Shown here: piece after piece, positions 11,988-29,409 of the stretch
Layout of the letters: the number at the start of each line of letters is the position of its first letter
Position numbering within the stretch: the first letter of the stretch is position 1
Assembly: GCA_965116885.1 (NCBI GenBank)
Contig: OZ220741.1
Coordinates: 1,440,001 to 1,504,000 of the forward strand
Direction: 5' to 3'
Source: Candidatus Latescibacterota bacterium
GTDB lineage: Bacteria > Latescibacterota > UBA2968
DNA length: 64,000 nt
Program-made: the position numbers and the translations under genes
Notes under the pieces: generated by a model
The model's input: only the letters and a program-made list of their open reading frames with translations
What the model was told of the DNA's origin: nothing
Database searches by the model: none

Positions 11988-11992
11988 ATCTC

Positions 11993-13526: not shown

Positions 13527-13596
13527 CGCAGAACTAAAGATGCTTGAGATGTTATCAGTGAGGTCCTAACAGGAAGGCCCACAGAGATCTCCAATG

Positions 13597-14943
13597 CTAT
13601 AATTTAAAGACGTGATCTTTCTTTCCCGATACAACCTGCGTGGCATTGCGCGTATCGACAATATAGCGCGCGTGCTTTACTATCCATTCATAATCCCAAT
13701 CGCTGTGATGGGTCACAATCACCACACAATGGGCTTCTGTTATATTTTTTTTATTCAAAGAGGTACTCTTCAAGTCCAAACTTTCTGTCTGCAAGTGATC
13801 TACAAACGGATCGCAATACGAGACTTTCGCCCCTTTCTCCTGAAGCATTTCTATAATATCCAATGCCGGCGACTCGCGAATATCGCGTACATCGGGTTTG
13901 TACGTCACGCCCAATATCAGGATGTTCGCGCTCTTCAAACACCGCTCGTATTCGTTGAGTGCGTCGGTGATTTTTTCGACCACATAGCCCGGCATGCTGC
14001 GCGTCACTTCGCTGGCCAATTCGATAAAGCGCGCATTGTAATTTAAGGTCTTGAGCTTCCAGGCCAGAAAGTGAGGATCAACTGGAATACAATGCCCGCC
14101 CAACCCAGGACCGGGATAAAACGGCATAAACCCAAACGGCTTGGTCGCTGCGGCATCGATTACTTCCCAAACATCCACCCTTAGCCGGTCACACATCAGG
14201 GCCACTTCATTGACGAGGCCGATATTTACACTGCGAAAAGTATTTTCGAGCAACTTGGTCATTTCAGCAGCCTGGGTCGATGAGACCGGTACGACTTCGC
14301 CGATCAATTGTCGGTAAAAATGCGTGCCTATTTCTGTGCAAGACGGGGTAATACCCCCCACGACTTTGGGCGTATTGGTGATGGTATAAACTTTATTGCC
14401 CGGATCGACGCGCTCTGGAGAAAATACCAGAAAAAAATCTCGACCAACTTTCAAGCCACTTTCTTCGAGCAGGGGCAATACCAGTTCATGGGTCGTACCT
14501 GGATACGTCGTGCTCTCCAAAATCACCAGTTGTCCGCAGCGCAGTCGGTCTTTGATTGCATCACATGCTTGTACAATAAATGAGACATCCGGATCGCGTG
14601 CTTTATTCAAGGGTGTGGGCACACATACCACGACCACATCGGCTTCATTGAGCACATTGAATTCTTGTGTTGCTGTCAGTTTTCCCACAGCTTTAAGACT
14701 TGTCACCTCAAATTCCGATACACCCTGCACATCGGACTTTCCCGATTCTACTATCTTTACTTTGCGGGCGGATGTATCGATTCCCGTGGTGGAAAATCCC
14801 GCCTTACCTAATGCCACAGATAAAGGCAATCCCACATACCCCAATCCCATCACTGCCACCTGTGCCTCGTGTGACGCGATCTTCTCCTCCAGAATCTGTC
14901 TGGAATCGACGCTTCCCCAGGGTAATCTTTCTGTCAGGGCCAT
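13597..14943 (-). CDS. UDP-N-acetylhexosamine 6-dehydrogenase (WecC/WbpA family)
   Basis: GLGYVG Rossmann motif, CVPTP, ESTTYPG, SPER, KLLENTFR, catalytic GGHCIPVDP. Confidence 0.93.
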   Translation of the reverse strand: MALTERLPWGSVDSRQILEEKIASHEAQVAVMGLGYVGLPLSVALGKAGFSTTGIDTSARKVKIVESGKSDVQGVSEFEVTSLKAVGKLTATQEFNVLNEADVVVVCVPTPLNKARDPDVSFIVQACDAIKDRLRCGQLVILESTTYPGTTHELVLPLLEESGLKVGRDFFLVFSPERVDPGNKVYTITNTPKVVGGITPSCTEIGTHFYRQLIGEVVPVSSTQAAEMTKLLENTFRSVNIGLVNEVALMCDRLRVDVWEVIDAAATKPFGFMPFYPGPGLGGHCIPVDPHFLAWKLKTLNYNARFIELASEVTRSMPGYVVEKITDALNEYERCLKSANILILGVTYKPDVRDIRESPALDIIEMLQEKGAKVSYCDPFVDHLQTESLDLKSTSLNKKNITEAHCVVIVTHHSDWDYEWIVKHARYIVDTRNATQVVSGKKDHVFKL

Positions 14944-14988
14944 TGTGTCATCCTCTCAGAATAAATCTATTTGATTTTCAGGACAGGA

Positions 14989-16095
14989 TTAACTTTTTAA
15001 TTCAGCAACGATTCGCTCTGCGGCATTGCCATCCCACAACTCAGGTAAGCGACCAGATTTATAGTGCCCATTCAAAACAGATTCAGCCTTTGCGACAATG
15101 CGTTCGGGACAAACGCCCACCAGTGTGTTCGTCCCAATATCTATAGTCTCTGGTCGTTCTGTATTCTCTCTAAGCGTCAAACACGACACACCCAAAGCCG
15201 TCGTCTCTTCTTGCAATCCCCCTGAATCTGTCATCACAAATTTTGCATTCTTCTGAAGTTTCAAAGAATCGAGATAGCCCACCGGATCCATAAGTTTGAT
15301 ATGGTCCATCATCTCAAGCTTTTGCAAAAAACCGAATCCGGACAGGCGATTGCGGGTTCTCGGATGCAAAGGCCACGCGATGGGACATTTGAGGGCTTGC
15401 AACGCGGATGCAATACCAGCCAACGTATCTGAACAATCGACATTTGAGGCGCGATGGAGGGTTAGAAAAACGTATTCTCGAATCGATAAACCGTGTATGT
15501 CCAGAATGCGGGATTCATCGGCTTTGGGGGATAGCAACATCAGAGAATCTATCATCACATTGCCCACAAAATGAATGCGGCTCTCTTCTATGCCTTCGCG
15601 CCTCAGATTTTCACATGCCTGCATTGAAGGTGCAAACAGAAGATCGGATATAGCATCCACCACAATTCGATTGATCTCTTCGGGCATTGACCGATCCCAA
15701 CTTCGCAACCCCGCCTCTATGTGTCCAACGGGAATTTGCAATTTCGCGGCATCCATCGCACAGGCTAAAGTGGAATTTACGTCACCGACGACAAGCACCC
15801 AATCTGGTTTTTCCGACAATAAAACCTCCTCAAAGCCCATCATGATCTGCGCTGTCTGGTGCGCGTGACTGCCCGACCCCACATTCAATTCATAATGCGG
15901 TCTGGGTAGATTTAAGTCTCGAAAGAAAATATCGGACATCAGATCATCGTAGTGTTGTCCCGTATGGACCAGAATCGGCTCAAACCAATCGGGTGTCTCG
16001 GTCAGTTGATTCCACAGCGGGGCAACTTTCATAAAATTGGGTCGCGCACCTGCAACAAGGATAATTTTCACCTGTGTTCTCCTCAATGGTGTCAT
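14989..16095 (-). CDS. wecB: UDP-N-acetylglucosamine 2-epimerase (non-hydrolysing)
   Basis: GARPNFMK, HTGQHYD, HIEAGLRS, PEEINR, TDSGGLQEE, TERPET. Confidence 0.95.
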   Translation of the reverse strand: MTPLRRTQVKIILVAGARPNFMKVAPLWNQLTETPDWFEPILVHTGQHYDDLMSDIFFRDLNLPRPHYELNVGSGSHAHQTAQIMMGFEEVLLSEKPDWVLVVGDVNSTLACAMDAAKLQIPVGHIEAGLRSWDRSMPEEINRIVVDAISDLLFAPSMQACENLRREGIEESRIHFVGNVMIDSLMLLSPKADESRILDIHGLSIREYVFLTLHRASNVDCSDTLAGIASALQALKCPIAWPLHPRTRNRLSGFGFLQKLEMMDHIKLMDPVGYLDSLKLQKNAKFVMTDSGGLQEETTALGVSCLTLRENTERPETIDIGTNTLVGVCPERIVAKAESVLNGHYKSGRLPELWDGNAAERIVAELKS

Positions 16096-17282
16096 TTATT
16101 TAACACACGATTATAGATGTCAAGCCACTGTGCTGTTTCTTGAGTTGGAGAAAATTGGTTTTCCACTTTATGTTTTGCGGTCTTCCCAAGCCTTTTTCTC
16201 AGTTCTGTATCCTCAAGTAATAGTTGCAATTTTTGGGATAACATATTGGCGTCACCAGAGGCAACAAGAAGGCAATCCCTATTATCTTCAACTATATCAA
16301 GAATACCACCAACTTGAGAGGCCACAATGGGCAGTTCGCAGGCCATCGCCTCCAAGAGTGCATTTGGTGAACCTTCATGAAGCGAAGGGAAGGCAAAAAT
16401 ATCCATCTCCCTCATCCACGCCATCACTTCTCGATGTGGAATATAACCCGTAAATACAATGTGCCTTTTTATCCCCAGATCACTGATCTGCTGCAACATA
16501 TCTCTTTTATAGGATTCTTGTGCAAACTGACCTACAACGAGCAAATAAGAATCGGGATAAACTTTAACAATCTCTCCAAATGCCTGTAAGAGAATGTGAA
16601 ACCCCTTTATAGGCCGCAAAAATCCAGCAGTTCCAATGACTGTGCCACCTTGTGATTTCATCCGTAAAAAGGTTTCAGTAAGTACTTGCAGTCTATTATT
16701 ATGCTCTCCTGTTATTTCTGGCAGTGCGCGTACATCAAATATTGACACATCAAAAACATTGGGGATGACCTTTCCTGCTTTGATGCTTACCGTTCGACGC
16801 ATTTTTTGCATGAGTTCAGATGATACTGACGTTACATAATCGGCCCGTTCTAATACCCACCTTAGATTTGCTAAGTGTTGGATGCTATAGCGCAAGACTT
16901 CCCAATCGCTACCTCGAACACTGGCGATGAAAGGTCGCTCAATTTCAGCAGCCACGACTGCACCTAAAAAGCCAGGAGGCATAAGAAAAGCTGCATGAAC
17001 CAGGTCAAAACGCTGTTTCTGATGGAGTTTTACAATGTAGTTACCAAGCACCTGTAAACCATGCGGATCAGCATGATAATCTGATAATATTGAAAAAGTC
17101 CGATGTACTGTCACCCCATCTTCTACGACAGGTGAAATTTTATCTCTTAATTGATGGGGACCCGGCGCAATAATATGGATATTGACATCCCTTTTTGCCA
17201 GATTCTGGGCAATCCGATAAATTGCACTTCCCACTCCTCCTGGGTATGGTGGATATTGGTAGGTAACCAAGCAGATGTTCAT
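16092..17282 (-). CDS. Glycosyltransferase family 4
   Basis: YPPYPGG N-terminus, KG(F), and EGSPNALLEAMA (EX7E) signature. Confidence 0.92.
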   Translation of the reverse strand: MNICLVTYQYPPYPGGVGSAIYRIAQNLAKRDVNIHIIAPGPHQLRDKISPVVEDGVTVHRTFSILSDYHADPHGLQVLGNYIVKLHQKQRFDLVHAAFLMPPGFLGAVVAAEIERPFIASVRGSDWEVLRYSIQHLANLRWVLERADYVTSVSSELMQKMRRTVSIKAGKVIPNVFDVSIFDVRALPEITGEHNNRLQVLTETFLRMKSQGGTVIGTAGFLRPIKGFHILLQAFGEIVKVYPDSYLLVVGQFAQESYKRDMLQQISDLGIKRHIVFTGYIPHREVMAWMREMDIFAFPSLHEGSPNALLEAMACELPIVASQVGGILDIVEDNRDCLLVASGDANMLSQKLQLLLEDTELRKRLGKTAKHKVENQFSPTQETAQWLDIYNRVLNK

Positions 17283-17292
17283 GCTTACCTCC

Positions 17293-18600
17293 TCAGTGTA
17301 TGCCTGGTGTTCTTGGCTTTCGTATCACCAGCAGGCCCCATCGCACTATTGTCTTAGTTGATCTCATCAGCCTTTTCATCATTCGATATATAGCAAAACT
17401 TAACATCAAGATGAGTAGAGAAGGAAAAAAGAACCTTGACAGGGCACTCCCAATATTTTTCCAATCTCCAGCGGCAAAGCCGCTTATTATCTCGCTAAAA
17501 GTCTTATATACAAGACCGGGATAGTTTGAAATCAAATCGGGAAAGAGAAAAAAAATCTTGTAAAAGAACAAGACGAAGAAGCTGGCACTGACAATTCCAT
17601 ACACGCAGAGAAACGATTTTATCTTCCCACTGATGCGTAAAAAAATAGGTTCAGCAATCTCTCTCTCTCTTAAAATGAAACGCTTGACAAAGTATTTCAG
17701 AATTTCTAAAGATCTTTTTCTGAGATTTGGCACGCCTGCTATATCTGAAAAAAGCCAATACCCATCAAATCGGAAAATTGGATTCAAGTTAAACAGTGCT
17801 GACCCGTAGTTAAAAAGAATCAAAAATAAAAACACGCTACTTGCTGTCGTCAGATACAGTATGAAGAGTATAGGAATAAAAATAAGCTGAAAATATATAC
17901 CTCCGAAATCCACCATCGCACGTTGCATTCTCGGTAGCCTCCAGGCATCCGTTACATTAGAATAAAGAACGGGAAAGCGCAGATACAATCCTATCCCAAT
18001 CTCTCCGGGTGACGCGCCATAATAAGCACAAGCTGAAGCATGACCTAACTCGTGGAAAATCCCTAAAACACCAAAAATTATCAGCGTTAGAATCGTATCT
18101 TGAAACGAAATATCATAAATAGTAAAGTCTATGACTTGGAGTTGAAAAAAATAGAAATACCCAAAAAAGACAAAAGAGAAAAAAATAAAAGAGATCAAAA
18201 TTTTTGGATAAAAAAGAGTCTTGAGAATATTACTAACGGCATGAACCGCATTCGCCCGCATAAAAGGGTATTGAAAATAAAAATACGAATTGCTTGTTTG
18301 AGCATCTACATCTGAGGTTGTATTTTCAAGGATTCCGTAGGGTTTTAGAAATGAATGGATAATTGCAGCAATGTCTTTGGCAGAGTATGTCTTATTCCTG
18401 ATAGAAGAGTATGCGCTTGCAATTTCAGACAGCGTTTTTTTGCCGTCTATCAACTCGATGATTTGATAGACACCCTCGCTTATTTCAAACCGTTTCGTGC
18501 CTATGCACAAAACATAACTTTCCTCTACTAAAGCGGTATCGAATTTATACATAGAGATTTTCGGAACCAACTTAATCGGATCTGGTAGGGATTCTTGCAT
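17293..18600 (-). CDS. M50-type membrane zinc metalloprotease with N-terminal PqqD/RRE-like domain
   Basis: HELGH and NLNPIFRFDGY motifs within TM segments; N-terminal IIELIDGKKTLSEIA resembles the RRE/PqqD winged helix. Confidence 0.85.
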   Translation of the reverse strand: MQESLPDPIKLVPKISMYKFDTALVEESYVLCIGTKRFEISEGVYQIIELIDGKKTLSEIASAYSSIRNKTYSAKDIAAIIHSFLKPYGILENTTSDVDAQTSNSYFYFQYPFMRANAVHAVSNILKTLFYPKILISFIFFSFVFFGYFYFFQLQVIDFTIYDISFQDTILTLIIFGVLGIFHELGHASACAYYGASPGEIGIGLYLRFPVLYSNVTDAWRLPRMQRAMVDFGGIYFQLIFIPILFILYLTTASSVFLFLILFNYGSALFNLNPIFRFDGYWLFSDIAGVPNLRKRSLEILKYFVKRFILREREIAEPIFLRISGKIKSFLCVYGIVSASFFVLFFYKIFFLFPDLISNYPGLVYKTFSEIISGFAAGDWKNIGSALSRFFFPSLLILMLSFAIYRMMKRLMRSTKTIVRWGLLVIRKPRTPGIH

Positions 18601-18750
18601 GGTGTATTCCTGTCTTGACTCTAAGAGACTATTTTAAAAATCCTTCCGGGAGCGCAGGCGTCACGCTGTTTTCACCCATCGCCTATTTGGTCCCAAATGG
18701 ACATGAGAATGCTTTGTCTATGCAAGTCTCTGAGGGTTTTAAAATAGCTT

Positions 18751-19752
18751 CTAAGGGTTTTCGGTTTCCATTACAAGTTTACTCACTCGATCAATTTCTT
18801 GCTCCTTATGTTTTTGCAGATTGCGGAGCAAAACGGACATTTCAGATATGCTATGGTCAATCGCAATCTCCCAGTCCGTGCAGGGTACCTGATGAACATA
18901 AGACAATGCCTGTCTATAGCAATCTATTGCATGATCGAGAATTTCTTCTGCCAGCCCTGTAAAGTAAATCATACGCGCAAGTTCTTCCAGGGTAACGGAT
19001 TCTAATTTTTCGTGAAGCTCCTTTCTGTCAATGATTTGAGACAAAAGGTACGAATATCTGCCAGCGATAAAGTCATCTCTCCAATTTTTAAGATCATTAT
19101 GAAATTGTAAGCCCGTAAAAAAGGCATCTAAGGATTTTTCAAGAAGACGGATCAATTCCGGTGAGTCAGACAAACAGGCTAAAGCAGTTGTCACCATCTG
19201 GATTGTGGCGGCTTTACCAGAGGCAATATCAAACGCCTCATCCAATGAATAAAATGTGGGATTATTCCATTTTGTTCTTTCTTGTAGTGTTGCAGCAATG
19301 GCGCGACGCTGATACTTTTTGGCAAAGGCCCAAAAATCCGAACCTGGGGGGAATAAGTCATTGAGAAGACCAAACGCATGATCTCTCAAAAGAGAAGCAA
19401 AAAAATAGGCATCTACTTTGAGAGTCTCCCGCTCATCAAAAACATCATCCATATACGATGTGTAGATGTATAATGACCGATTGACAAAATACAATTTCTG
19501 CTGTGTGTCTTCGTCCAGGACAAATACCTCCGAGAACTGCGATGTAAAGGAAGTATGTACATCAGTGGATAGAAATACGGGATATTGTTTTAGGGCAGCC
19601 TCCAGATCATATTCTTCACATATCTGAGACATAAATTGATAAAATTCGACTTCGGATTTTTTGATTGAGATATCATCTTGAAGACCAAAGTTCAGTGAAG
19701 CAATTTCATCCTCAATAGAGGCAAAGGGGTCTGATGGCAAATGTGTATTCAT
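18751..19752 (-). CDS. Class I isoprenoid-synthase-fold protein (ComQ-like putative peptide prenyltransferase)
   Basis: DDVFD (DDxxD), SGKAA, and a second degenerate motif LQFHNDLKNWRDD; helical character. Confidence 0.7.
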   Translation of the reverse strand: MNTHLPSDPFASIEDEIASLNFGLQDDISIKKSEVEFYQFMSQICEEYDLEAALKQYPVFLSTDVHTSFTSQFSEVFVLDEDTQQKLYFVNRSLYIYTSYMDDVFDERETLKVDAYFFASLLRDHAFGLLNDLFPPGSDFWAFAKKYQRRAIAATLQERTKWNNPTFYSLDEAFDIASGKAATIQMVTTALACLSDSPELIRLLEKSLDAFFTGLQFHNDLKNWRDDFIAGRYSYLLSQIIDRKELHEKLESVTLEELARMIYFTGLAEEILDHAIDCYRQALSYVHQVPCTDWEIAIDHSISEMSVLLRNLQKHKEQEIDRVSKLVMETENP

Positions 19753-19809
19753 GTCAAGGTCCTTTTTGAAAACTTTAAAAAGAGATAGGTTTCTGAATCA
19801 ATTCATAAA

Positions 19810-22440
19810 CTACTGCAGGGATATTGAATCACCATTGACAGGCGCGTGACTATGCTGACGTGTCTCCTTGAGGAGTGTATTATTCCCCAAAAGATTGGTG
19901 CAGCCCGAAAGGCTATCAATAAATGAAAGCGTCTGTTCTGTACCATTTAGGTTAAGCTCGTGGGTAAGAGATTTTTGATGGGATAAATGCTGCATAATAC
20001 TGTCTGCGACGCTATCAGGCGTCAGGTCAACCGGATCAATTTTCTTTACCAGTCCCAAATCGGACAGCCTACTTGCTCTGATATCTTGATCTTCAGAGAG
20101 TAAACTCGGTACAAGGAGTGCTGGAGTACTGGTTTCCAGAATATTGACACAAGTATTGTAACCCGCCCGGCTGATTACAAGATTGGCTGCCTGCATCCAT
20201 TGAAGAAAATCAGGTGTATATCGCCTTATATAGAACGGGCCCATTTCACACATTCGTTCCAAAGTCTCGTATTGGTCATCATTGATAAACGGGCCAGGAA
20301 ATATGACCATTTTCCAACCATCCATCTTTCCCTGTTTATGCAGCAATTTCCAGGCTTTGATACAAGGCACAATAAGCTCGTAACCGTCAACACCACCACC
20401 TGCGCTAACCATCACAAAGTTCTCTATGTTCTCATCTGGTTTTCTACATATCCCGTCATGCGGCTTTTCAGAGACATATCCAGTATATACAATCGGTATG
20501 ACAATATCTTCTATCCAGGGGAAATATTCTTTTAGTTGGGTCACGCTCGGATCTCCATGAACAAGCAAGGCATCAAAGTAAGCATTTAATGTCGGACAAA
20601 CTTCCTCATAGTATCTTTTAGCTTTATATAGGTCCTGGTCTTGAGGGGTCAGGAGGTCAGGTCTTTCTACATTAATACTCGAATGAGGCTTAAAAATATC
20701 AGCCGTTCTCGCCCGTAGCGGAATATCGCGCAAAGAGCAGATGATATGAATATCCGGAATTTTTGATTTAACCATTCCCAACAGGTATTGTAATTCTGGG
20801 CGTAGCTTCCATCGACCAAAGGGAAAATGTTCAATCATAATTACATCTGGCTGGATGTCTGTAACCGTCTCTGTCAATTTAATTAGCCTTTTCTCGAAAG
20901 TCTCCCGGATACCTTGATCCTCGTCTTCAGAGGCTAATCCCTCCGGCGTAAGTGAAATAGGCATTAATTGGATTAAATTAATGGATCCCTGCATTTTGAA
21001 ATCGGGAATTGGGCGTCCCCCATTCACAAAGTGAACGTCGTAATTTTGGGATAGTTCACGAGCGATTTGAAGGTTGCGAAAGTGATGGCCCATGCCAACG
21101 AGATGCTGGCTATACAGGATGATACGCTTCCTGCGGGATCTTGATAGTGGCTTGGATGCCCGATGTCGTTTTCCCTGGGTCGCGTGCTTGTATATGGGTT
21201 CATAATTTGCCACTACTTGCTGCCAATCTTTGTGTTCCGAAATCCACTGTCGTGCCCGATGCCCAAGTTCCGCTCTAAGTTGTGTATCTTCAATTAAAGC
21301 CGAGCATTTCTGCGCGAGATTCTCTGGATCATCAGCATTACATATACGCCCCGTCGTGCCGTCATCTATAATTTCCCGAAGCGCAGCCACATCGCTGACA
21401 ATGACGGCTTTTCCCATTGCCATGGCTTCATACGGCTTAATAGGGGTCACCAATTCCGTTACGCGGCTTCGTACTCTGGGTATGACAAAAATATCAATCA
21501 AGGCATAATAGTCGAAAACATCTTCGTGTGGTACCTGTCCTGTAAAGTGTACAACCGAGTCTAAACCCAATTCTGTTGCAAGCCGCTGAAGTGGTTCTAC
21601 CTCATCTCCACCACCAACAATGAGAATTTTAATCTGAGGATGACGAGATAGGAGCATTTTTCCTGCTTTGAGAAGCCAACGAAGACCTTCAAGTTTTCTG
21701 ATTGAACCAATATGTCCGATGGTTACGCTATCGGAACCAAGCCCTAATCGCTCTGCCAAATGGGTTGGGTACGGTCTCGGTGTAAATTTCGATGTATCTA
21801 CACCATTGGGAACAATGAAAATTTTGTCTTCAGGAATCCCTTCTCGGATAAACTCCTCTTTCATTGTTTCAGCCAATGTGACGACCTGATCGGCTCGTTT
21901 CATGGCCTCTACAAACAAAAAGTGTCGGTGCTGATATGCTTTTGAAGAAGTATCAAGGGTTCCTGCAACCACGCCCGTTTCATGCCATAATCCGCGCACT
22001 TCATAGATCACAGGTAGGTTGTATTTGTGTCCGACTTTAGCTGATATTAATGCATTCTGGGCAGGAGAAGCAACATGGATCACCTCGGGTTTGTGAACTT
22101 CGACAACACGAGAAATATGATTCTGAAACTGCCGTTGCAATCCCTCACGATGTAATGCAGCAGAATATCGTGTCTGACGAAAACCAAGGTCATGGAAATG
22201 TTGATCAAGCAATGCCTGGGTCATGTCGTTCAAGTACAATACCCCATCCAGATACTCCTCTTCAACAAGAAATTTACTGTCTATAAGATGAGTGTCTTTG
22301 AAGCGGGTTGCTACAATAGGTTCAAGCCCTATTCTACTCTGGGTATCAAAGATATATTTGCTTCTGATTGTGTAACCCGCCTGTCGAGATCGCAGAGAAT
22401 AATCCAAAACATGTAGGACCTTCATAACTAAACCTTTCAT
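19810..22440 (-). CDS. Fused bi-domain glycosyltransferase (GT4 + COG4671/GT28-like)
   Basis: N-domain KVLHVLDYS...AGYTIRS...TPIKPYEAMA; C-domain YSQHLVGMGHHFRN...SAGGG...SRAGYNT...EDQDIRA. Confidence 0.88.
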   Translation of the reverse strand: MKGLVMKVLHVLDYSLRSRQAGYTIRSKYIFDTQSRIGLEPIVATRFKDTHLIDSKFLVEEEYLDGVLYLNDMTQALLDQHFHDLGFRQTRYSAALHREGLQRQFQNHISRVVEVHKPEVIHVASPAQNALISAKVGHKYNLPVIYEVRGLWHETGVVAGTLDTSSKAYQHRHFLFVEAMKRADQVVTLAETMKEEFIREGIPEDKIFIVPNGVDTSKFTPRPYPTHLAERLGLGSDSVTIGHIGSIRKLEGLRWLLKAGKMLLSRHPQIKILIVGGGDEVEPLQRLATELGLDSVVHFTGQVPHEDVFDYYALIDIFVIPRVRSRVTELVTPIKPYEAMAMGKAVIVSDVAALREIIDDGTTGRICNADDPENLAQKCSALIEDTQLRAELGHRARQWISEHKDWQQVVANYEPIYKHATQGKRHRASKPLSRSRRKRIILYSQHLVGMGHHFRNLQIARELSQNYDVHFVNGGRPIPDFKMQGSINLIQLMPISLTPEGLASEDEDQGIRETFEKRLIKLTETVTDIQPDVIMIEHFPFGRWKLRPELQYLLGMVKSKIPDIHIICSLRDIPLRARTADIFKPHSSINVERPDLLTPQDQDLYKAKRYYEEVCPTLNAYFDALLVHGDPSVTQLKEYFPWIEDIVIPIVYTGYVSEKPHDGICRKPDENIENFVMVSAGGGVDGYELIVPCIKAWKLLHKQGKMDGWKMVIFPGPFINDDQYETLERMCEMGPFYIRRYTPDFLQWMQAANLVISRAGYNTCVNILETSTPALLVPSLLSEDQDIRASRLSDLGLVKKIDPVDLTPDSVADSIMQHLSHQKSLTHELNLNGTEQTLSFIDSLSGCTNLLGNNTLLKETRQHSHAPVNGDSISLQ

Positions 22441-22565
22441 AATGAACTCTGAATAAACCGTGAGTGAGGTTTTTTAGGGATGATGTCCCGCTATCATCAC
22501 GATAAGGCCGTCTGCCTTGGTGAAATACAAATTCGGATAGTGCATCGCCTATAGACACCGGAATA

Positions 22566-25500
22566 TTATGGCGCGAAAGGGTGGCGTGGTGTGATTTTAT
22601 CCACAAAACGCCATCGTACCGCATCGGCATACAAGGTCCCCTTTGCGCGGTCAGACAATTCGACTACAGCCTCTACTCCCTCGACAAATTTGTATCGCCC
22701 CAGGTGATTCCAGCCCGCTTTCATAAGATCGCGCTCCATTTCAAGCGTATCGACCTTATCCGCGTGAAAAACAGTAAGTGTAAAGGTCGTACCAATGCCC
22801 TCGCGCCTGGCTATTGCGGGATCGGGAAAATAGAAGCCCACATCAAACTCGCCATCTCTGGGGATTCGCGCGGCCCACACAGCCGGCTGTGCGCCATCGC
22901 CCGGTTTCTTTTGCCGATAATTTTTTGTATACCGCCCATAAGCTGTCGGCAGGCTACGCTCGCGCCAGTTGCCCCCTTCAAGACCGGGACGAGAGTAGCG
23001 CGTCGTTCGCCGAATCGGCATTGAAAATCCCTTGTCGTCATTATCTACAATGATCTCAAAAGGCCCCATATCTGCACGGATTACATCCCCTTCTCCTGTC
23101 ACATCTTTGAGATAGGCCATGGGAGTCCCCCCTGTAACCTGTTCAGGAACGCGCACAGGAGAGATAAGCGGTTGGCGATTGCGTGCAAAAAAGGGTTCGA
23201 CGATCACCCGCAAGGGTTGCTCCCACAGCACCATCGAAACTTCGATTTCCTGACCGCCTTCAATCTCTACGCCCTTTACTGCCTCATCATTTTGACCAAT
23301 GGCCGTGATTTGCACATAGCCCCTGCCGGGTTCGCTATTCTTAATGCGCACAATCAGTTGGTAAACTAGCGTTCCGGAGCCATCGTCTACCTTCAAGGCT
23401 TTTACACTTGTCAATTTATAGCCCGGGATTTCCGTGCTATATATCCAATCTTTAACCAGACGCTGTAATCTCTGGCGATTTTCATCTTCGGTGTAGCCTG
23501 CGGCGGCACGTTCAAAGGTCGAAAAATCGATGTCCTTGTATTTGTAATTCTGGCTAATGTCGGCCAAGAAGGTGCGGAATGTTTCTTCACCCAAAAAGGA
23601 GGCGAACATCCCAAAGAGTGCAGGCCCCTTGGCGTCGAGAGCCTGGCGATAAAGGTCCGCCTCCTGTTCGGGATCTAAATCGGCAAATGACTTGCCCTGC
23701 ATCTCGGCAATCAGCTTGTTCCAAGCTCTCGTTTTTCTTCTGCTTATAAACGCCGCCTCGCGCGCCCTGTCACTGTTGCGTCGTTGGCTTGGGTAAAAAG
23801 CGGCTGTTAGATCGGTTCTCAAGTCATTCTGTAGATACATGGGCAGACCCTTTTTAAGCAGGGCATAATGGTCGCCCACAAACTGCTTGTCATAAGCCCA
23901 GAGTTGAAAAACAGGGCTACGAAACAGTCCATTGGATTTTATTGCCGCGTTTTCTTCAGAAAAAAAAGTTGAAAAAATGGCGCGTATCAAAATATCCTTT
24001 TTAACATTTTTGGGATCTTGATTCGATTGCTTTTGTTTCTTTTGGATAACCACCTGCCGCAAGAGCACATCTTCTTCAATCATCAACACGCCCGGCTGTG
24101 TCAGGCCGCCCTTTTCTTCCCAGCCTTCGTAATACCACTGAATATGGAACGGAACTTCCACCAGTGAAAGGCTCGGATAGGGATATTTCATGCCAGATTC
24201 CTGTTCCATGAGATCCACGATTTGCCCGAGCGCACGCACAATCTCTTTTTTTGCACCTTCAAAAAATTTAATCGGACGCAGATGTGAAGGATGCACGTAA
24301 AGGGCACATTCGATGTCGTGAATGGTGGCGCGATACACGCGATATACACCAGCATTGAGCGATAGGACAGGCACGGGATTTTCAACAACCCATTGGCGGG
24401 TCACTTGTGTGCCGAGGGTATCGGTCTTGCCGATCTGCCCCTGGGTAATGACTTCGAGACCTTTGGGAAATGTGATATGCAAGTTGGCCGTTGAAAAAGA
24501 GACCGGGCGCGCATTTTTATAGCCATAATCAACGCCCGTGACGGGATACCAGCGGCTTCGCGGCGGCAAAAAGATGGACTTGTCGCGAATCCACGCCGTC
24601 AAAGAGCCACTGTACCCCTTATCTTTCCGCAACCTCGGTTTGCCTTTTTCTCGCTTGAGATCAAAACCATCCGTGTTAATATCACCCGCATATGCTAACG
24701 TCAGATCGAGTTTTTGTTCCGATTGCAGGGGGGTAGTGGGCACGACACTAATCACGCTTTCCGTCCGCTCCCATGCTATTGCTCTGCCATCAGCGTGCGT
24801 CAGACTTTGGATTTTGAATCCGGGATTGAGTGAAAGAATCAACGTATCGAGCGGGGATTCGTGAGGATTTCTCAAGCTAATCGTGCCAGAGGTTGTAAGT
24901 AGCTCCTCTCCCAAAAGCGTCAATGCCAGATCGTAATGGGTGATTTCCGCTACGGAAATATGTGCAATCGCTTCCTGCTGCGCGAGCAAGGACTGGCGAT
25001 ACGCTTGCCTATTTCGAGCTTCCGCATCCACATAAAAGTAAAGACCAGCAGCCAATCCAAAACCGGTCAACGCACATCCCCAGCCAAACCACCGCGCAGT
25101 CGCAGAATGTGCAAGACGGGGATATCGATCAATCGCAAATCCCAAAAAACTTATGCCGAGCAAAATGTAAAACACGCGTTGCAAACCCACTTGCGTCATA
25201 TTCCCTATGCCCATCAGGTCCGAATAATCCATGTGGGTCGCAAGAGAAATGAAATCGAAGAGGTCGGGATATTGTTTGCCCAGATATAATATCACAGCGA
25301 GCGAATACGCTGTTGCGACCAAGGCAGCCGCTATTGGACGACGCAGCAAGACGCCTAAAAAAAATGTCAGAGAAGACATAAAAACCAAGGCGGGTAGGTT
25401 CAAGAGCACGAGGTATAAAATATAAGGTTTGACTGTCAGTGGATTGCCCGTCATGCTGATCGTTGCTGCCTGAAGGCCCAGAGTCAAAAACAGGATCCCA

Positions 25501-25856
25501 AGGCTAAAAAAGAAAAGCGCGCTAACCGTGCCCAGATACTTACCCGCAACCAGTTCTGCCGTTGAAATAGGACGCCCGGCAACTACTTCATAAATGTGGG
25601 CATTTTCGTCAGCCGCTCTAAAAGACCCCGCCATAAATGGAATGACAAGGGTTTGAAATAAAGTGTATATAAGAAAAAGAAAGTAAGATTCTTTTCCCGG
25701 AGGCATTCCAAATTCAGTATCTATGGCAAGACGAATGCCGTAATAAACGAAAATGCCCAAGGGGAAGATGCCCAAAATGCGAAATTTTGTAGTTCTCAAA
25801 AGCATTTTGCGCTCATAGCGTGCAACACCAAGTATATTGTTGAGAATAGAGAACAT
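22566..25856 (-). CDS. ABC-2 permease fused to M1-aminopeptidase-like domain and golvesin-like C-terminal domain
   Basis: N-terminal TM helices (VAGKYLG); M1-like WYP and YPYPSLSLVEVP but no HEXXH; C-terminal IIVDNDD...ADAVRW. RBS AGGAG before ATG 25856. Confidence 0.8.
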   Translation of the reverse strand: MFSILNNILGVARYERKMLLRTTKFRILGIFPLGIFVYYGIRLAIDTEFGMPPGKESYFLFLIYTLFQTLVIPFMAGSFRAADENAHIYEVVAGRPISTAELVAGKYLGTVSALFFFSLGILFLTLGLQAATISMTGNPLTVKPYILYLVLLNLPALVFMSSLTFFLGVLLRRPIAAALVATAYSLAVILYLGKQYPDLFDFISLATHMDYSDLMGIGNMTQVGLQRVFYILLGISFLGFAIDRYPRLAHSATARWFGWGCALTGFGLAAGLYFYVDAEARNRQAYRQSLLAQQEAIAHISVAEITHYDLALTLLGEELLTTSGTISLRNPHESPLDTLILSLNPGFKIQSLTHADGRAIAWERTESVISVVPTTPLQSEQKLDLTLAYAGDINTDGFDLKREKGKPRLRKDKGYSGSLTAWIRDKSIFLPPRSRWYPVTGVDYGYKNARPVSFSTANLHITFPKGLEVITQGQIGKTDTLGTQVTRQWVVENPVPVLSLNAGVYRVYRATIHDIECALYVHPSHLRPIKFFEGAKKEIVRALGQIVDLMEQESGMKYPYPSLSLVEVPFHIQWYYEGWEEKGGLTQPGVLMIEEDVLLRQVVIQKKQKQSNQDPKNVKKDILIRAIFSTFFSEENAAIKSNGLFRSPVFQLWAYDKQFVGDHYALLKKGLPMYLQNDLRTDLTAAFYPSQRRNSDRAREAAFISRRKTRAWNKLIAEMQGKSFADLDPEQEADLYRQALDAKGPALFGMFASFLGEETFRTFLADISQNYKYKDIDFSTFERAAAGYTEDENRQRLQRLVKDWIYSTEIPGYKLTSVKALKVDDGSGTLVYQLIVRIKNSEPGRGYVQITAIGQNDEAVKGVEIEGGQEIEVSMVLWEQPLRVIVEPFFARNRQPLISPVRVPEQVTGGTPMAYLKDVTGEGDVIRADMGPFEIIVDNDDKGFSMPIRRTTRYSRPGLEGGNWRERSLPTAYGRYTKNYRQKKPGDGAQPAVWAARIPRDGEFDVGFYFPDPAIARREGIGTTFTLTVFHADKVDTLEMERDLMKAGWNHLGRYKFVEGVEAVVELSDRAKGTLYADAVRWRFVDKITPRHPFAP

Positions 25857-25933
25857 GGGATTACTCCTGTTTAAGCGATCAGCTTTCAGCCTCTCCCTCC
25901 ACATCTAAAGGCGAGAAGCGAGCCTTGTTTTCT

Positions 25934-26833
25934 TCATCCCGCGATTTCATCAGCGGTGTTGCTGCCCATAAAATAGAGATATGCATCTTCGAGATTGGGT
26001 GCGACCACTTTGGCATCAGCGGGTGGCTCGCCATCGCCCACCATCCGAACACTCAGGCGATCACCTTCAACATTGACCGTCACCACATGAAACACACGCG
26101 ACAGCTTTTCAAAGTGAGGCTCATCAACACGTATTTGCCACGTCTTGCCATCGGCCTTTGAAATGAGGTCTGATGGAGAGCCGCGAAAGATCAGTTGTCC
26201 ACGATTCAAAATCGCGAGATACTTGCAAGTGCTCGAAATATCACCCACAATATGCGTAGAGATCAAAATTACACGATCGCTGCTCAAGCGACCTAAAATG
26301 CCTCGAAACCGGATGCGTTCTTCCGGGTCAAGCCCCACAGTCGGTTCATCGACAATCAGAAAACCTGGATCGGTCAAAATGGCCTGTGCAATGCCAAGAC
26401 GCCGTATCATGCCACCGGAAAACGTACCCGTGCGCCGCTTGCGTGCATCGTACAACCGGACTTCATTCAATGCTTGTTCAACACGCGCCAAACGCTCGCT
26501 CTTATTGTGGATGCCACCCAAAACAGCCATATAATCAAGAAATTCCCAGGCGGTTAGTTGTCGATAGGTGCCAAAATTTTGTGGCAAATATCCAAGGCGT
26601 CGGCGAATTTCTGTGCGGTCTTTTACCAGATCGAACTCATCCATGGTCACGCTGCCACTCGATGAGTCCATTTGGGTCGATAAAATTTTAATCAGTGTTG
26701 TTTTGCCCGCGCCATTGGGTCCCAGTAGGCCAAATGTTCCGTGAGGAATGCTCAAGGTGATATCGTCCAGGGCAGGCGCATCGCCGCGCCGATATGTTTT
26801 TGTCAGGTTTGAGATGCGAATGACCATCAGCAT
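25934..26833 (-). CDS. ABC transporter ATP-binding protein
   Basis: GPNGAGKT, FSGGM, IVDEPT, STH. Confidence 0.96.
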   Translation of the reverse strand: MLMVIRISNLTKTYRRGDAPALDDITLSIPHGTFGLLGPNGAGKTTLIKILSTQMDSSSGSVTMDEFDLVKDRTEIRRRLGYLPQNFGTYRQLTAWEFLDYMAVLGGIHNKSERLARVEQALNEVRLYDARKRRTGTFSGGMIRRLGIAQAILTDPGFLIVDEPTVGLDPEERIRFRGILGRLSSDRVILISTHIVGDISSTCKYLAILNRGQLIFRGSPSDLISKADGKTWQIRVDEPHFEKLSRVFHVVTVNVEGDRLSVRMVGDGEPPADAKVVAPNLEDAYLYFMGSNTADEIAG

Positions 26834-26872
26834 GCCTCCTGAATATTTTACGCGATCAAAAAAGTATAAGAA

Positions 26873-26921
26873 TGGTCAAGACCACCTATCTTTTGACAAA
26901 CAATATAAGTGGTCTTGACCA
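26873..26921. promoter_or_regulatory. Stem-loop downstream of the precursor gene
   Basis: Perfect 13-bp inverted repeat TGGTCAAGACCAC / GTGGTCTTGACCA with a 23-nt loop. Confidence 0.7.
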
Positions 26922-27013
26922 GCAAACTAAGCAAAGACCTCTAACAATAACTTCTACGGCTTGCTCCTACAGTCCTCAATACCACAATATTATTACTGCC
27001 GTAGAGCTCGCTA

Positions 27014-27250
27014 TTAGCTGTCGATCGTGCAGTCGTGTTCTCCACAAGAGCCTCCGCCGATGTCTTTTCCACAGTCATGCCACAGACAAAAGCCATCATC
27101 ATCATCCGTGGTGCAGTCATGAGTGATGCACCACATTTCCAACCTTTCTTCAAGCGCATCAACGACCAGATCCTCATAGAGTTCAGGATACGACGCGATG
27201 TGTGCTTTGAGTTCAATCTCTGAAGAGATGTGAGCAGACAAATTAGCCAT
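27014..27250 (-). CDS. Putative RiPP precursor peptide (78 aa) with 3x CxxHDCxxD core
   Basis: AGGAGG RBS; Cys-free acidic leader ending LEERLEM; core WCITHDCTTD-DDDGF-CLWHDCGKD-IGGGS-CGEHDCTIDS; adjacent to the rSAM/SPASM gene. Confidence 0.85.
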   Translation of the reverse strand: MANLSAHISSEIELKAHIASYPELYEDLVVDALEERLEMWCITHDCTTDDDDGFCLWHDCGKDIGGGSCGEHDCTIDS

Positions 27251-27345
27251 GATACTACCCTCCTGGTGTTGAAACGTGAACAGATAACATCGGCGTTTCT
27301 ACTACTTATCACACATAATGCCTCCTTTCTCGAGCGTTATACTTA

Positions 27346-29052
27346 CTATAAAGTTTGTTGTTTGTACTCCTCAAATACCTCAGGCACGACCGTATGGAAA
27401 ACCTTGGGATACTCATCGCAATAGGACGTTTTGATATTGCCATCATTTTTTACATAAGCATGTGCAGCACATCCACCGCCACAAAAGAATGCATATTTGC
27501 ACTTACTGCAAGATGGCACATTAGAAATATTCCGATCATACCATTCTGATAAATGTTCATCATTGAATTCAACTTTATCCAAATAATTTCCAACTTTGTA
27601 CCGGTCTACACCCACCAATTCCCAACACGTATAGAGGTCTCCATAAGGATCAAGGATCAACATACCGTTCTGTGCGCCACAGAAGATGGGCCTAAAACTT
27701 AATAGCCCTTTACCATCAAGAGCTCGCTTGAAGGTCTGTCTAATGCCAGCATCTTGGCAAGAAATTTGGTGCATTAAGTCGGGATTTTCTTTTACAAACT
27801 GATAGTATTTGCGAGTAAACTCTCTTCTTGGCATCACCGAAACTTCTCCATTTTCAGAACGTACGGATTCCATTTCAAGCACAATGGGGCTTGTGCCTTT
27901 GCGGTAGTTCGAAAAAATTTCTTCCTCTCGTTCCACATCGATATATTGCTCTTCATCTATGTACACTCCAGGATCAAAAATTTCCTGTTCCTGGGGCTCA
28001 TTGTCCTTGAAAGATATGACAGAGGCAACAGACTCGGAGGGTTCAGAATCTGATGTTGGTGCTTCAATTGAAATAAGAGGTGCCGTCTGACCATAATTGC
28101 CTGGCGTCTTTTTACCAGACATTGTAGCACTACACGACATGCCTTCTTCAATCTGATGTACCAAGGCAGAATAGGCCGAAAATTTCGGATACTCTGTAAA
28201 TCCTCTATCTTTGAACAAATCAAATAATGCAGGTAAAATATCCACATTGTCGTAATCTGTATTGATTCGCATTGAAACTTGCACATCAAGCGACAGAGCA
28301 AGTGCCACATTTTTCATGATCGCACCAAAACTATCTCCTGCACGATAATGTGGACGCTTGCGATTGTGATTTTCTTCTTCGCCATCTAAGGTAATCTGGA
28401 GGCGTCTGATTTTTTGGGGACCTAATAAATCCGTGAAATGATGAAGGTCATAGCCATTTGTAATCGCAGAAAAGATGTAATCGCGTTTCAAACCTTCATC
28501 TACAATATACCGCACGATCGCTTTATTTTTTGCTAACAAAGGTTCTCCCCCATACAGAGTAATGTTCTTGCTATGCATGGCTCTGTTGGGTTGAATTTCG
28601 CACATGGCCTGGTATGCCCGGTCAACCATCTCCTTTGTAAAGACTTGCTTTGACCAGCCCTTGCCATGAGATGAAATGTCATTTTCAAAACAATAAGGAC
28701 AGCGGAAGTTGCAATCGTAGGCCACCAAGAATAAGAAAGATGCAGAGCTTTGGCTTGAGTTGTGGTGGAGAAAATTCGCCATGCTATGCACGTATTCTCG
28801 TTCTTCCACAGGAGAACGACTGGTCAGATAGCCACGCTTCATTAAGGTTTGGATCGTTTCTTTTGAACAAGGCAGTTCATCAAACATATCTTCCGAGAGA
28901 ACAACCTTGCTTTTGATCATCTGAGCGACTTTTTTATTTACTCTATCTATTGCGCCTGTATAGCCATGAACGAGCAAAGTGTAATCTGGATCTTCAGGCA
29001 GCTTGACACAAATCGTATAGGACGATACGCGATATAATTCTGAATTTGCCAT
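27346..29052 (-). CDS. Radical SAM/SPASM peptide maturase with N-terminal RRE-like region
   Basis: CNFRCPYC, YGGEPLL, ITNG, ITLDG; SPASM C..G...C...CxxCxxxxxCxGGC...C; about 100-aa N-terminal extension. Confidence 0.93.
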   Translation of the reverse strand: MANSELYRVSSYTICVKLPEDPDYTLLVHGYTGAIDRVNKKVAQMIKSKVVLSEDMFDELPCSKETIQTLMKRGYLTSRSPVEEREYVHSMANFLHHNSSQSSASFLFLVAYDCNFRCPYCFENDISSHGKGWSKQVFTKEMVDRAYQAMCEIQPNRAMHSKNITLYGGEPLLAKNKAIVRYIVDEGLKRDYIFSAITNGYDLHHFTDLLGPQKIRRLQITLDGEEENHNRKRPHYRAGDSFGAIMKNVALALSLDVQVSMRINTDYDNVDILPALFDLFKDRGFTEYPKFSAYSALVHQIEEGMSCSATMSGKKTPGNYGQTAPLISIEAPTSDSEPSESVASVISFKDNEPQEQEIFDPGVYIDEEQYIDVEREEEIFSNYRKGTSPIVLEMESVRSENGEVSVMPRREFTRKYYQFVKENPDLMHQISCQDAGIRQTFKRALDGKGLLSFRPIFCGAQNGMLILDPYGDLYTCWELVGVDRYKVGNYLDKVEFNDEHLSEWYDRNISNVPSCSKCKYAFFCGGGCAAHAYVKNDGNIKTSYCDEYPKVFHTVVPEVFEEYKQQTL

Positions 29053-29105
29053 AAGAAAACCTCCCTTGGATTGCGTGGGTATTATATTTTTTTATCCATA
29101 TACGC

Positions 29106-29294
29106 TTATTTTGCGAAATAGAGACATATTTCACCAGCCAATAACGATTGTTGTTCTATCTCTCTATTTTGCTGGCTCATTCTACGCATCATCGCGCGCA
29201 AGGCTTCAGATCGAACTTCATCGTTCCAGATAGCATAGAGTAAGGCGAGATGAGCCAAATGATCGCGTTTTGTTATCTGTGTCTGAGCATTCAT
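29106..29294 (-). CDS. Small protein (62 aa), first ORF of the sigma-54 operon
   Basis: GAGGTG RBS; paralog at 10216..10383. Confidence 0.7.
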   Translation of the reverse strand: MNAQTQITKRDHLAHLALLYAIWNDEVRSEALRAMMRRMSQQNREIEQQSLLAGEICLYFAK

Positions 29295-29345
29295 AAGTCA
29301 CCTCAGTAAATTCTGATGTCGTTATTGTCTTTGCACGTTATATAT

Positions 29346-29361
29346 GGCAAGATGCGTGCCA
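29346..29361 (-). promoter_or_regulatory. Sigma-54 (-24/-12) promoter, copy 2, heading the RiPP cluster
   Basis: Minus strand TGGCACGCATCTTGC, identical to copy 1. Confidence 0.85.
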
Positions 29362-29377
29362 TAAACTCGTTCGAAAT

Positions 29378-29409
29378 AAAAAAAAGCACTTGAATACGCT
29401 CAAGTGCTT
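29378..29409 (-). terminator. Probable intrinsic terminator of response regulator copy 2
   Basis: Perfect 10-bp stem AAGCACTTGA/TCAAGTGCTT plus a T-tract on the minus strand. Confidence 0.65.

Follow-up and report, generated by a model that had tools for sequence, protein, structure and literature searches.

We analysed a 64,000-nucleotide stretch of Candidatus Latescibacterota DNA (the window) and found that its cluster of eleven co-oriented genes is real, under purifying selection and layered: four genes make up the core, and the sugar genes are a putative tailoring layer. The evidence supports its identification as a RiPP cluster, and somewhat favours a sigma-54-controlled RiPP pathway built of these two layers. 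The intact gene set would most likely turn a small Cys-rich peptide into one carrying a ladder of sulfur bridges and an isoprenyl tag, and probably a sugar as well.

Architecture and control of the locus

All eleven minus-strand ORFs of the original prediction were recovered in the same order (13597-29294; table 1), with intergenic gaps of -4 to 180 bp. Ten of the genes have dN/dS values of 0.09-0.23 (for the precursor, the leader only), and the locus is covered at high identity by public DNA contigs from two runs. The core, that is, the radical SAM (rSAM)/SPASM enzyme, the precursor with its LEERLEM leader, the stand-alone prenyltransferase and the RRE-M50 protease, is found complete in five of six related DNA-read loci; at the G091 locus the prenyltransferase, M50 and GT4b genes are jointly absent. 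The original prediction had named as evidence against itself that rSAM/precursor homologues never occur with glycosyltransferase (GT) or prenyltransferase genes. Because homologous loci do carry a prenyltransferase (5/6) and a GT (5/6), this objection does not hold. The proposed "new class", on the other hand, was an overstatement, since in the chemistry that defines its class the cluster most likely falls with the ranthipeptides; in the literature we found no description of the cross-linked, prenylated and glycosylated combination, each modification being known separately.

The predicted sigma-54 promoter is present as an exact consensus. An identical site lies at 10436-10450, and with one mismatch the window holds 8 sites against 5.5 expected, so that the motif by itself is weak; context backs it, a site being located 5' of the rSAM gene in three of five other loci (exact in G083a and G091, one mismatch in G087; none found in G083b or L014). 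The preceding NtrC-type gene, outside the span first described and with a paralogue at 10632-11987, is judged from its domains to be the probable activator. Folding also bore out the terminator proposed at 13482-13516, a hairpin that a simple terminator scan missed. The strong hairpin 3' of the precursor gene, unmentioned in the original prediction, may be an mRNA stabiliser or a partial terminator. It could also terminate transcription there, which counts against the favoured pathway. The small first ORF did not survive as a pathway gene: it belongs to a repeated sigma-54 cassette, with three copies in the genome, each downstream of a sigma-54 site, occurs in 2/6 rSAM loci, has a dN/dS of 0.33-0.57, gave no match in a family search, and probably stands outside the pathway.

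Table 1. Features of the locus, in order along the minus strand
Feature	Position	Strand	Evidence and remarks
NtrC-type sigma-54 activator (receiver, AAA+, HTH)	29579..30967	-	Pfam Response_reg and Sigma54_activat
Terminator-like hairpin closing the activator gene	29375..29415	-	folding z -5.6
Sigma-54 -24/-12 consensus TGGCAC-N5-TTGC	29347..29361	-	exact match, directly after the NtrC-type activator gene
62-aa ORF	29106..29294	-	part of repeated sigma-54 promoter cassette
Radical SAM/SPASM maturase, 568 aa	27346..29052	-	C114/C118/C121; SPASM Cys 458, 476, 515, 518, 524, 528, 545
Precursor, 78 aa	27014..27250	-	conserved leader ending LEERLEM (M39); core WCITHDCTTDDDDGFCLWHDCGKDIGGGSCGEHDCTIDS
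Strong hairpin 3' of the precursor gene	26850..26935	-	z -5.3, 0/200 shuffles
ABC ATPase	25934..26833	-	2/6 loci; 83% paralogue elsewhere in genome
ABC-2 permease, M1-like domain without HExxH and Golvesin-C domain, fused	22566..25904	-	3/6 loci
GT4a (TIGR04063-like, below cut-off) fused to GT28-C-type GT-B domain	19810..22440	-	family profiles, trees
Stand-alone trans-IDS-fold prenyltransferase, 333 aa	18751..19752	-	D102/D106, K180, Q216, pseudo-SARM N219-D220-x-x-N223
RRE-like domain and M50 intramembrane protease	17293..18600	-	HELGH 183, NPIFRFDG 273; 5/6 loci
GT4b (BshA-like, below cut-off)	16092..17282	-	starts 10 bp after the M50 gene
WecB, UDP-GlcNAc 2-epimerase	14989..16095	-	TIGR00236 340.6, cut-off 210.15
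UDP-HexNAc 6-dehydrogenase, WbpA-like, not WecC	13597..14943	-	two 92% paralogues in genome
Terminator hairpin with U-run	13470..13530	-	folding z -4.5, 0/200 shuffles

Predicted chemistry of the core

Ten Cys of the rSAM enzyme, in the CxxxCxxC motif and the auxiliary-cluster sites, are invariant among 55 aligned relatives, and among solved structures 5WGG, presumably CteB, is the closest to it in sequence. Every curated maturase model scored below its cut-off; the best matches are maturases of the thioether type or of Cys-rich peptides. Two additional Cys, C307 and C432, are conserved. Thioether synthases are thought to use an open iron site; these two Cys could occupy it, which counts against a thioether synthase.

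In the precursor, where we infer cleavage after the LEERLEM leader (dN/dS 0.13-0.20), the core holds the pairs C41-H44, C46-D49, C55-H58, C60-D63, C69-H72 and C74-D77, with Trp at 40 and 57. Across 34 distinct, hypervariable cores sharing one leader type, Asp, Asn or His follows at Cys+3 for 165 of 258 Cys (67 expected, 0/1000 shuffles), for 118/179 among 24 non-redundant cores and for 6/6 in the window core, the other 93/258 Cys having a different residue. At this position Ser is absent and Gly, Val, Ile and Thr are strongly under-represented, which suits a Cbeta-H2 acceptor. Cys also recur with a periodicity of five (71/229 against 39 expected), and Asp at Cys+4 is found for 27/253 Cys across the family (34 expected), the window core alone having 4/6. 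The enrichment at Cys+3 suggests Cys-to-Cbeta thioether rings with a spacing unlike that of freyrasin, and the enzyme is predicted to be a Cys-to-Cbeta(i+3) thioether synthase; the ranthipeptide hallmark, Cys donors paired to a fixed non-alpha core position, is present as a sequence pattern only. The enzyme would very probably act on this precursor, and would probably join each Cys sulfur to the Cbeta of the Asp, Asn or His at +3; as many as six small rings would result, with a loss of 12 Da from the 39-residue core (4231.6 Da).

The model of the prenyltransferase (pLDDT 90.8) superposes on a trans-IDS with Z 22.2 (rmsd 2.9, 281 aligned), on Ord1 with Z 18.9 and on MoeN5 with Z 18.6. A Gln before the SARM is not diagnostic alone, as chain-elongating synthases have one too; here FARM D102/D106, Q216 three residues before the SARM and an ND pseudo-SARM together form the ComQ/StheQ-type signature, so the isoprenoid-synthase-fold DDxxD protein that had been linked to ComQ is borne out in fold and active site. 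N219/N223, a departure within the group in that 78/80 relatives keep Asp in the motif, counts against the favoured pathway. In the portions available of the work on ComQ, StheQ, PalQ, Ord1 and ChrPC (PMC13290415, PMC10853753, PMC12510300, bioRxiv 10.64898/2026.08.29.745113), FARM, Gln(-3) and ND constitute the normal ComQ-type motif, Ord1 D219A is inactive, the SARM Asp residues of PalQ are dispensable, and the acceptor is Trp in all characterised trans-IDS-like peptide prenyltransferases. The window enzyme would quite probably move an isoprenyl group from a prenyl diphosphate to the peptide; the acceptor is likely Trp40 or Trp57, the residues at which we would, with somewhat less assurance, place the group. 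Against this, Trp-free precursors accompany the prenyltransferase at 3/5 DNA-read loci and in 3/6 further inferred pairs (6/11). The enzyme belongs to an 11-row stand-alone branch amid prenyltransferase-cyclase fusions; relatives are fused to an MstE/squalene-cyclase-like domain, and 87 of the best 150 exceed 550 aa. A ChrPC-type prenyltransferase-cyclase was rejected, the fused class II cyclase domain being absent from its 333 aa, and the chain would stay linear because there is no cyclase. In favour of the pathway, a Hymenobacter plasmid has, of these parts, only a prenyltransferase of the same type, an RRE-M50 protease and a peptide that lacks Cys and in which Ala-Trp comes directly after a similar leader.

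The RRE-M50 protease would probably remove the leader, and the ABC pair would export the product, the ATPase being predicted as an accessory exporter. The resulting lipo(glyco)peptide would be rigid and strongly acidic, and a role in signalling, at the cell surface or in metal binding is more probable for it than one as a cationic antibiotic.

The sugar layer and alternative readings

Glycosylation is less well supported than prenylation, the reverse of the emphasis in the original prediction. The rSAM-locus GT4a forms its own branch (3 of 16 rows, 100/100), and a 99/99 branch sets the rSAM-locus GT4b (four rows and one remnant) apart from 12 other paralogues; in dS, GT4b follows the core genes, and it occurs in 4/4 Latescibacterota loci with the prenyltransferase. 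These cluster-specific branches, with a GT in 5/6 loci, favour peptide glycosylation, and on balance GT4b, and GT4a/GT28 where present, would attach at least one HexNAc-type sugar to the peptide. Sister GTs of these branches also occur in glycan loci. The WecB and dehydrogenase genes are shared donor genes, found in 2/6 loci and equally close to unlinked paralogues and to the orthologous locus. A WecB plus WecC-type pair had been expected to make UDP-ManNAcA. WecB stood (TIGR00236); UDP-ManNAcA is unsupported because the dehydrogenase, at 254.9, falls short of the cut-off of 459 for the WecC (UDP-ManNAc dehydrogenase) model NF008286, and the named proteins that it matches best, on plasmids, are WbpA/UDP-GlcNAc 6-dehydrogenases. 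It looks WbpA-like rather than WecC, though with Cap5O as best PDB match the substrate assignment is tentative. WecB would supply UDP-ManNAc and the dehydrogenase UDP-GlcNAcA, and a uronic sugar on the product is doubtful.

It is rather unlikely, though well worth weighing, that the peptide is cross-linked and prenylated while the sugar genes form a genus-wide sigma-54-driven module for a surface or lipid-linked glycan or for producer protection, travelling with peptide-export islands. The GT28-like domain is found in 23/31 family genomes and 21/21 genus genomes searched, in up to 7 copies, as well as in rhizobial and Nitrospirota GT/ABC loci; with GT4b it lies in loci L073 and L075-L077 beside sulfotransferase, GT2 or heparinase genes and without a peptide exporter. 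G072 has NtrC, dehydrogenase, wecB and GT4 genes at the same chromosomal site and no rSAM gene, wecB and the dehydrogenase gene are no nearer the orthologous locus than unlinked paralogues, and GT content varies, L014 having the core and no GT within 10 kb. Against such a module stand the separate GT branches, the co-divergence of GT4b with the core and its start just behind the M50 gene. Sister loci, moreover, swap in GT1-like, methyltransferase and sulfotransferase genes, typical small-molecule tailoring enzymes, and none of the eleven proteins matched a family of flippases, polymerases or initiating phosphoglycosyl transferases, as originally claimed, so that a Wzx/Wzy polysaccharide locus was rejected. 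Also in favour of the two-layer pathway, GT4a-GT28 with WecB accompanies diverse double-Gly precursors and a C39 exporter elsewhere, where no other enzymes were recognised.

A separate glycolipid, assembled by the prenyltransferase and the GTs on a moenomycin-like logic, is highly improbable, as is an inactive N219/N223 enzyme: MoeN5 shares the fold, the SARM variant is rare and GT4b accompanies the prenyltransferase, but the latter remains with precursor and M50 at the GT-free loci L014 and L057, was not found in 28/31 family genomes, most of which carry the GT module, has a dN/dS of 0.16-0.18 and bears the usual ComQ-type ND. Distinctly unlikely, too, is other rSAM chemistry (S-Calpha sactionines, Cys-imidazole at His, yyd-type epimerisation) or a C-x-x-(D/N/H) ladder that is partly a free metal-binding motif. 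Cys, His and Asp are metal ligands too, no curated maturase family is satisfied, 93/258 Cys have a different residue at +3 and the enzyme has its extra Cys; yet the strict +3 preference, the depletion of Gly and beta-branched residues, the best matches and the beta-thioethers to Asp and Asn described in the available parts of PMC8172795 and PMC9389541 all point to thioethers. Beyond the favoured two-layer pathway, we consider it improbable that three bolder proposals hold together: a triply modified RiPP with six Cys-X2 beta-thioethers (three to His), prenylation at Trp and a glycan of ManNAc/GlcNAcA; a single pseudo-SARM change from DDxxD to NDxxN that decides, within this family, whether Tyr or Trp accepts the prenyl group; and GT4a-GT28-WecB as a portable peptide-glycosylation cassette, sole maturase of a second genus-wide double-Gly glycopeptide family.

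Significance and relation to known systems

If correct, the pathway would open three kinds of enzyme to testing, in a phylum that is uncultured and whose chemistry is little known. The first is a thioether synthase whose spacing is new and which may accept His, the second a prenyltransferase family perhaps not confined to Trp, and the third the peptide glycosyltransferases of GT4/GT28 type. That the cores vary so much behind a single leader hints at enzymes tolerant enough to serve in producing cyclic lipo- and glycopeptides, and all the parts are small soluble proteins, co-expressible in E. coli.

Among known systems, the ranthipeptides PapB/freyrasin, CteB/thermocellin and NxxcB share the rSAM/SPASM enzyme, Cys donors, Asp/Asn acceptors and several rings per core; in the available parts of PMC8172795 and PMC9389541, however, the spacing is Cys-X3-Asp, against Cys-X2-(Asp/Asn/His) here, PapB rejects Asn and mostly Cys-X2-Asp, and no His acceptor, prenyl or sugar partner is reported. 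A freyrasin/PapB type was rejected (NF047865, 115.7 against 340), Cys-X3-Asp not being enriched in the family. As far as the prenyltransferase papers cited above extend, ComQ, StheQ, PalQ, Ord1 and the ChrPC P domain share the fold, the FARM and the Gln three before the pseudo-SARM, and ChrPC is cyclase-fused like the relatives of our enzyme, whereas the latter is stand-alone, paired with rSAM and RRE-M50, and about half of its linked precursors lack Trp. The B. subtilis epipeptide locus yyd/epe, to which the original prediction compared the cluster, is alike in its layout of precursor, rSAM, M50 protease and ABC genes (PMC10885120, in part). The analogy held for the layout and not for the chemistry: the cores point to thioethers, no epimerase model was among the matches listed for the rSAM enzyme (25 of 60), the YydH-family model NF058609 gave 48.9 (cut-off 225), and the window adds prenyl and sugar enzymes.

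Cys periodicity of five recalls the NCBIfam-predicted CefA/CefB (Cys-every-fifth), geopeptide, TIGR04463 and TIGR04157 (GT beside rSAM, Bacteroidales) systems, and gene neighbourhoods that combine an rSAM with a GT4 already figure among the predictions listed in the part available of PMC10352776. All of these models score far below cut-off here and the leader is different; CefA/CefB (NF038107/NF038108) was rejected (CefB 129.5 against 600; CefA weak in 4/33 precursors, no match to the window precursor). We know of no prenyltransferase in these four systems. A glycocin was likewise rejected, the SunS-type GT2 peptide S-glycosyltransferase being absent. Glycosylated RiPPs (glycocins, cacaoidin, NAI-112) have their GTs encoded next to the peptide pathway, as in the window; the locus described here differs in that its GTs are of the GT4 and GT28 types, come together with a dehydrogenase and WecB, and are set on an rSAM scaffold.

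The eleven-gene cluster and its relatives

In this analysis, we followed the window's rSAM peptide cluster, part of a 5.56-Mb genome in a single contig, across related loci. The eleven ORFs are present as the original prediction held, its sigma-54 promoter was located as an exact consensus, and the terminator is there as a closing hairpin; a strong hairpin, at 26850-26935, also lies 3' of the precursor gene. Compared with the sister loci, purifying selection is clear in all cluster genes (dN/dS 0.09-0.23) but the first, a 62-aa ORF. Further copies of this ORF lie behind two other sigma-54 sites of the genome, ahead of unrelated genes, and it occurs in just two of the six rSAM loci; for these reasons we leave it out of the pathway to which it had been assigned. 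A duplicated cassette flanks the cluster (PAS histidine kinase, NtrC activator, terminator, identical sigma-54 site, small ORF), with the kinase truncated in the upstream copy; contig joints are seen between the two copies of this cassette. Upstream of the activator lie an HTH/pentapeptide-repeat gene and an NAD-dependent sugar epimerase, a flank also found in genome G083; the pentapeptide gene and activator recur in genome G072.

Coordinates of features in the window, its genome (G000) and other loci
Sequence	Coordinates	Feature
Window	29347-29361	sigma-54 promoter
Window	10228-13207, 29106-31517	flanking cassette copies
Window	31624-33987	HTH/pentapeptide and epimerase genes
L008 (G091)	2477-4472	tandem precursors
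L070 (G089)	10770-13354	truncated GT4b region
L058 (CP061010.1)	8974-13974	distant rSAM relative
L057 (NZ_CP040937.1)	8890-11217	prenyltransferase, RRE-M50, peptide
L011	1451-1702	Cys-poor core
G000:C1	4281495-4294296, 2397276-2409453, 3010079-3018826	second peptide system
L059-L068, L071, L072, L074		second peptide system
G000:C1	82427-84096, 258736-260409, 1924871-1926539	second sigma-54 rSAM system
L062		second sigma-54 rSAM system

Matches to the rSAM occur in 4 of the 168 genomes of the phylum, at five loci in total, to which a distant metagenome locus (L014, rSAM about 40% identity) was added as a sixth; all six were read at the DNA level for the gene-content counts. The rSAM and precursor are found in 6/6, the prenyltransferase and RRE-M50 protease in 5/6, and a genome-wide search of G091 returned neither of the latter. 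At least one GT is present in five loci, L014 having none within 10 kb; by type, GT4b occurs in four, GT4a in three and the GT28-like domain in two, with a GT1-like enzyme in G087. Both wecB and the dehydrogenase are present in two loci, as is the ABC ATPase, and the permease in three; extra genes in the sister loci encode a sulfotransferase or a methyltransferase. Of the genes to be checked for co-conservation with rSAM and precursor, the prenyltransferase and some GT recur in most loci, wecB and the dehydrogenase in two. The rSAM family itself is broad (672 proteins with E values no higher than 1e-40), its named members belonging to Bacteroidota and Balneolaceae.

Several regions beyond these counts deserve mention. 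G091 carries two tandem precursors with one leader and different cores, one closely matching that of the window. G089 holds a GT4b of the kind found in rSAM loci, truncated at its 5' end. Next to it lie an uncharacterised ORF and, as in three rSAM loci, an S41-peptidase-like gene; this region is probably a deleted cluster. On a Muribaculaceae plasmid, genes for an M50 protease and a large protein of outer-membrane type come after a distant rSAM relative, and no precursor was identified there.

Precursor cores and predicted ring chemistry

A precursor profile built from 7 sequences found 30 proteins; the 34 distinct cores, rich in Cys (18%) and Asp (15%), all lie behind an invariant RLEM. When Cys positions were kept and the remaining residues shuffled, the residue three after Cys (Cys+3, n=258) proved to be Asp in 104 cases (43.6 expected), Asn in 47 (19.9) and His in 14 (3.5); Glu is not enriched, and Gly, Val, Ile and Thr are almost never there. 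Among 24 cores below 45% identity, these three residues fill 118/179 positions against 48.9 expected, and neither +4 (35/258) nor -3 (57/230) shows a comparable share. All six Cys of the window core fit the rule, with His and Asp by turns. A PapB-type Cys-X3-Asp spacing would also suit the core in the window, yet it does not hold for the family as a whole, and "Trp or Tyr in every core" (32/34) was dropped as a signal, composition alone predicting about that. Asp, Asn and His all have a CH2 adjoining an sp2 carbon, the beta-thioether site in PapB and NxxcB according to two papers (PMC8172795, PMC9389541). In the rSAM, the radical triad is present together with seven SPASM Cys; among solved structures, 5WGG is closest to it in sequence, and every curated maturase model fell below cut-off. 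From sequence, we infer that its products would be S-Cbeta rings with a new i+3 spacing. A weak NCBIfam match to FlmE/OhkG was set aside, the DD(I/V)LF precursors described for those systems (PMC12703449) being unrelated. Some cores, at L011 and in P0310, have just 1-3 Cys and a long tail of Asp and Gly.

The prenyltransferase and its probable acceptor

A profile search of the full library recovered 842 prenyltransferase relatives. Among the best 150, 87 exceed 550 aa, and seven of nine long relatives scanned carry an MstE-like squalene-cyclase-like domain. This is the architecture that a review (PMC13290415) describes for ChrPC, a prenyltransferase with a fused squalene-cyclase-like domain. 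The window enzyme is stand-alone, and a quick tree of 80 rows places it in a branch of 11 stand-alone rows (SH-aLRT 97). It has no match in Pfam or NCBIfam, and the clusters returned by an Atlas search are mostly unnamed. Its model (pLDDT 90.8), which supersedes one from 21 close sequences (pLDDT 53.5), aligns with trans-IDS enzymes (Z 22) and with Ord1, which prenylates indoles (Z 18.9). The enzyme displays D102/D106, K180, Q216 and N219-D220-x-x-N223, and lacks the Arg pair that chain-elongating synthases carry after the first motif. Q216 and N219-D220 correspond to the Gln(-3) plus ND signature of ComQ/StheQ, as given in a preprint (bioRxiv 10.64898/2026.08.29.745113). Both Asp of the second motif (SARM) are dispensable in PalQ; D219A is not tolerated in Ord1. 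The enzyme treated in PMC12715784 has the ABBA fold.

On a Hymenobacter plasmid, a prenyltransferase relative lies beside an RRE-M50 protease and a 49-aa peptide, Cys-free and with one Trp, whose leader, similar to that of the window, is followed by Ala-Trp; no rSAM is annotated at this locus. Another relative (L015) occurs with an rSAM and a short Trp-containing ORF, and these pairings therefore tie the prenyltransferase to a peptide. Against a simple Trp model, Trp is absent in 3/5 DNA-read loci and in 3/6 pairs deduced from contigs of equal length, and the six precursors without it all contain Tyr. The N219 variant is found in 6/21 close relatives and 2/80 overall; NDxxN accompanies Trp-only cores in 3/3 cases, all from one branch, so that this pairing is only a lead. 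The Hymenobacter three-gene set, from a cultured strain, offers a minimal and simple test system.

Probable glycosylation and the proposed pathway

The sugar genes give evidence both for and against a dedicated role on the peptide. In favor, the rSAM-locus copies of GT4a, GT28 and GT4b each cluster apart from their paralogues (the GT28 tree a quick version, the GT4b tree with one GT4a cross-match as outgroup), and GT4b dS to three sister loci (0.43, 0.68 and 0.52) lies in the core-gene range. By hand comparison, 13/15 wecB copies of the genus lie at most 21 kb from a GT4a. Among 20 regions selected for carrying the sugar genes, 13 are peptide loci, with GT4a-GT28 or GT28-GT4b, usually another GT4, and double-Gly precursors with varied acidic cores; 12 of these have a C39 exporter and one a second rSAM system. 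Each of the six GT28-like copies in G000 adjoins exporter genes. On the other hand, four of the 20 are glycan-type without a peptide exporter (the others being one in G072 and two not clearly either type), the same chromosomal site in G072 has dehydrogenase, wecB and GT4 genes with no rSAM, and distant GT28-like genes occur in GT/ABC loci without annotated peptides. The donor genes also count against dedicated use, their dS to unlinked paralogues being similar to that for the orthologous locus (0.34 versus 0.24 for wecB, 0.22 versus 0.23 for the dehydrogenase). The dehydrogenase, originally predicted to be WecC-type, falls short of the WecC model; among named proteins it best matches UDP-GlcNAc dehydrogenases, although its best PDB match is Cap5O.

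Two further systems were encountered. One, genus-wide, combines GT4a-GT28, another GT4, CAAX proteins, a cNMP/C39 exporter, HlyD, a parvulin-like protein and wecB with several precursors bearing double-Gly leaders and highly varied acidic cores; GTs are the sole maturases recognised, making it a candidate glycopeptide family. The other, again a sigma-54 rSAM system, has short peptides that end with a tail rich in Pro and Asp; in G085 it is joined to the GT/wecB/dehydrogenase module.

Overall, we suggest that the activator and sigma-54 most likely turn on the putative operon, that the rSAM would then form up to six thioether rings, and that the prenyltransferase most likely attaches a linear isoprenyl group to Trp, while the GTs probably add a HexNAc-type sugar. 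The M50 protease (HELGH, NPxxxxDG) would most likely cut off the leader by analogy with EpeP, which does so in the epipeptide pathway (PMC10885120), and the ABC pair most likely exports the product. Among the papers listed by a literature search, none describes a RiPP combining rSAM, trans-IDS prenyltransferase and GT, and the pathway belongs to no curated subfamily among those tested; it resembles a ranthipeptide pathway joined to a ComQ-type prenyltransferase.
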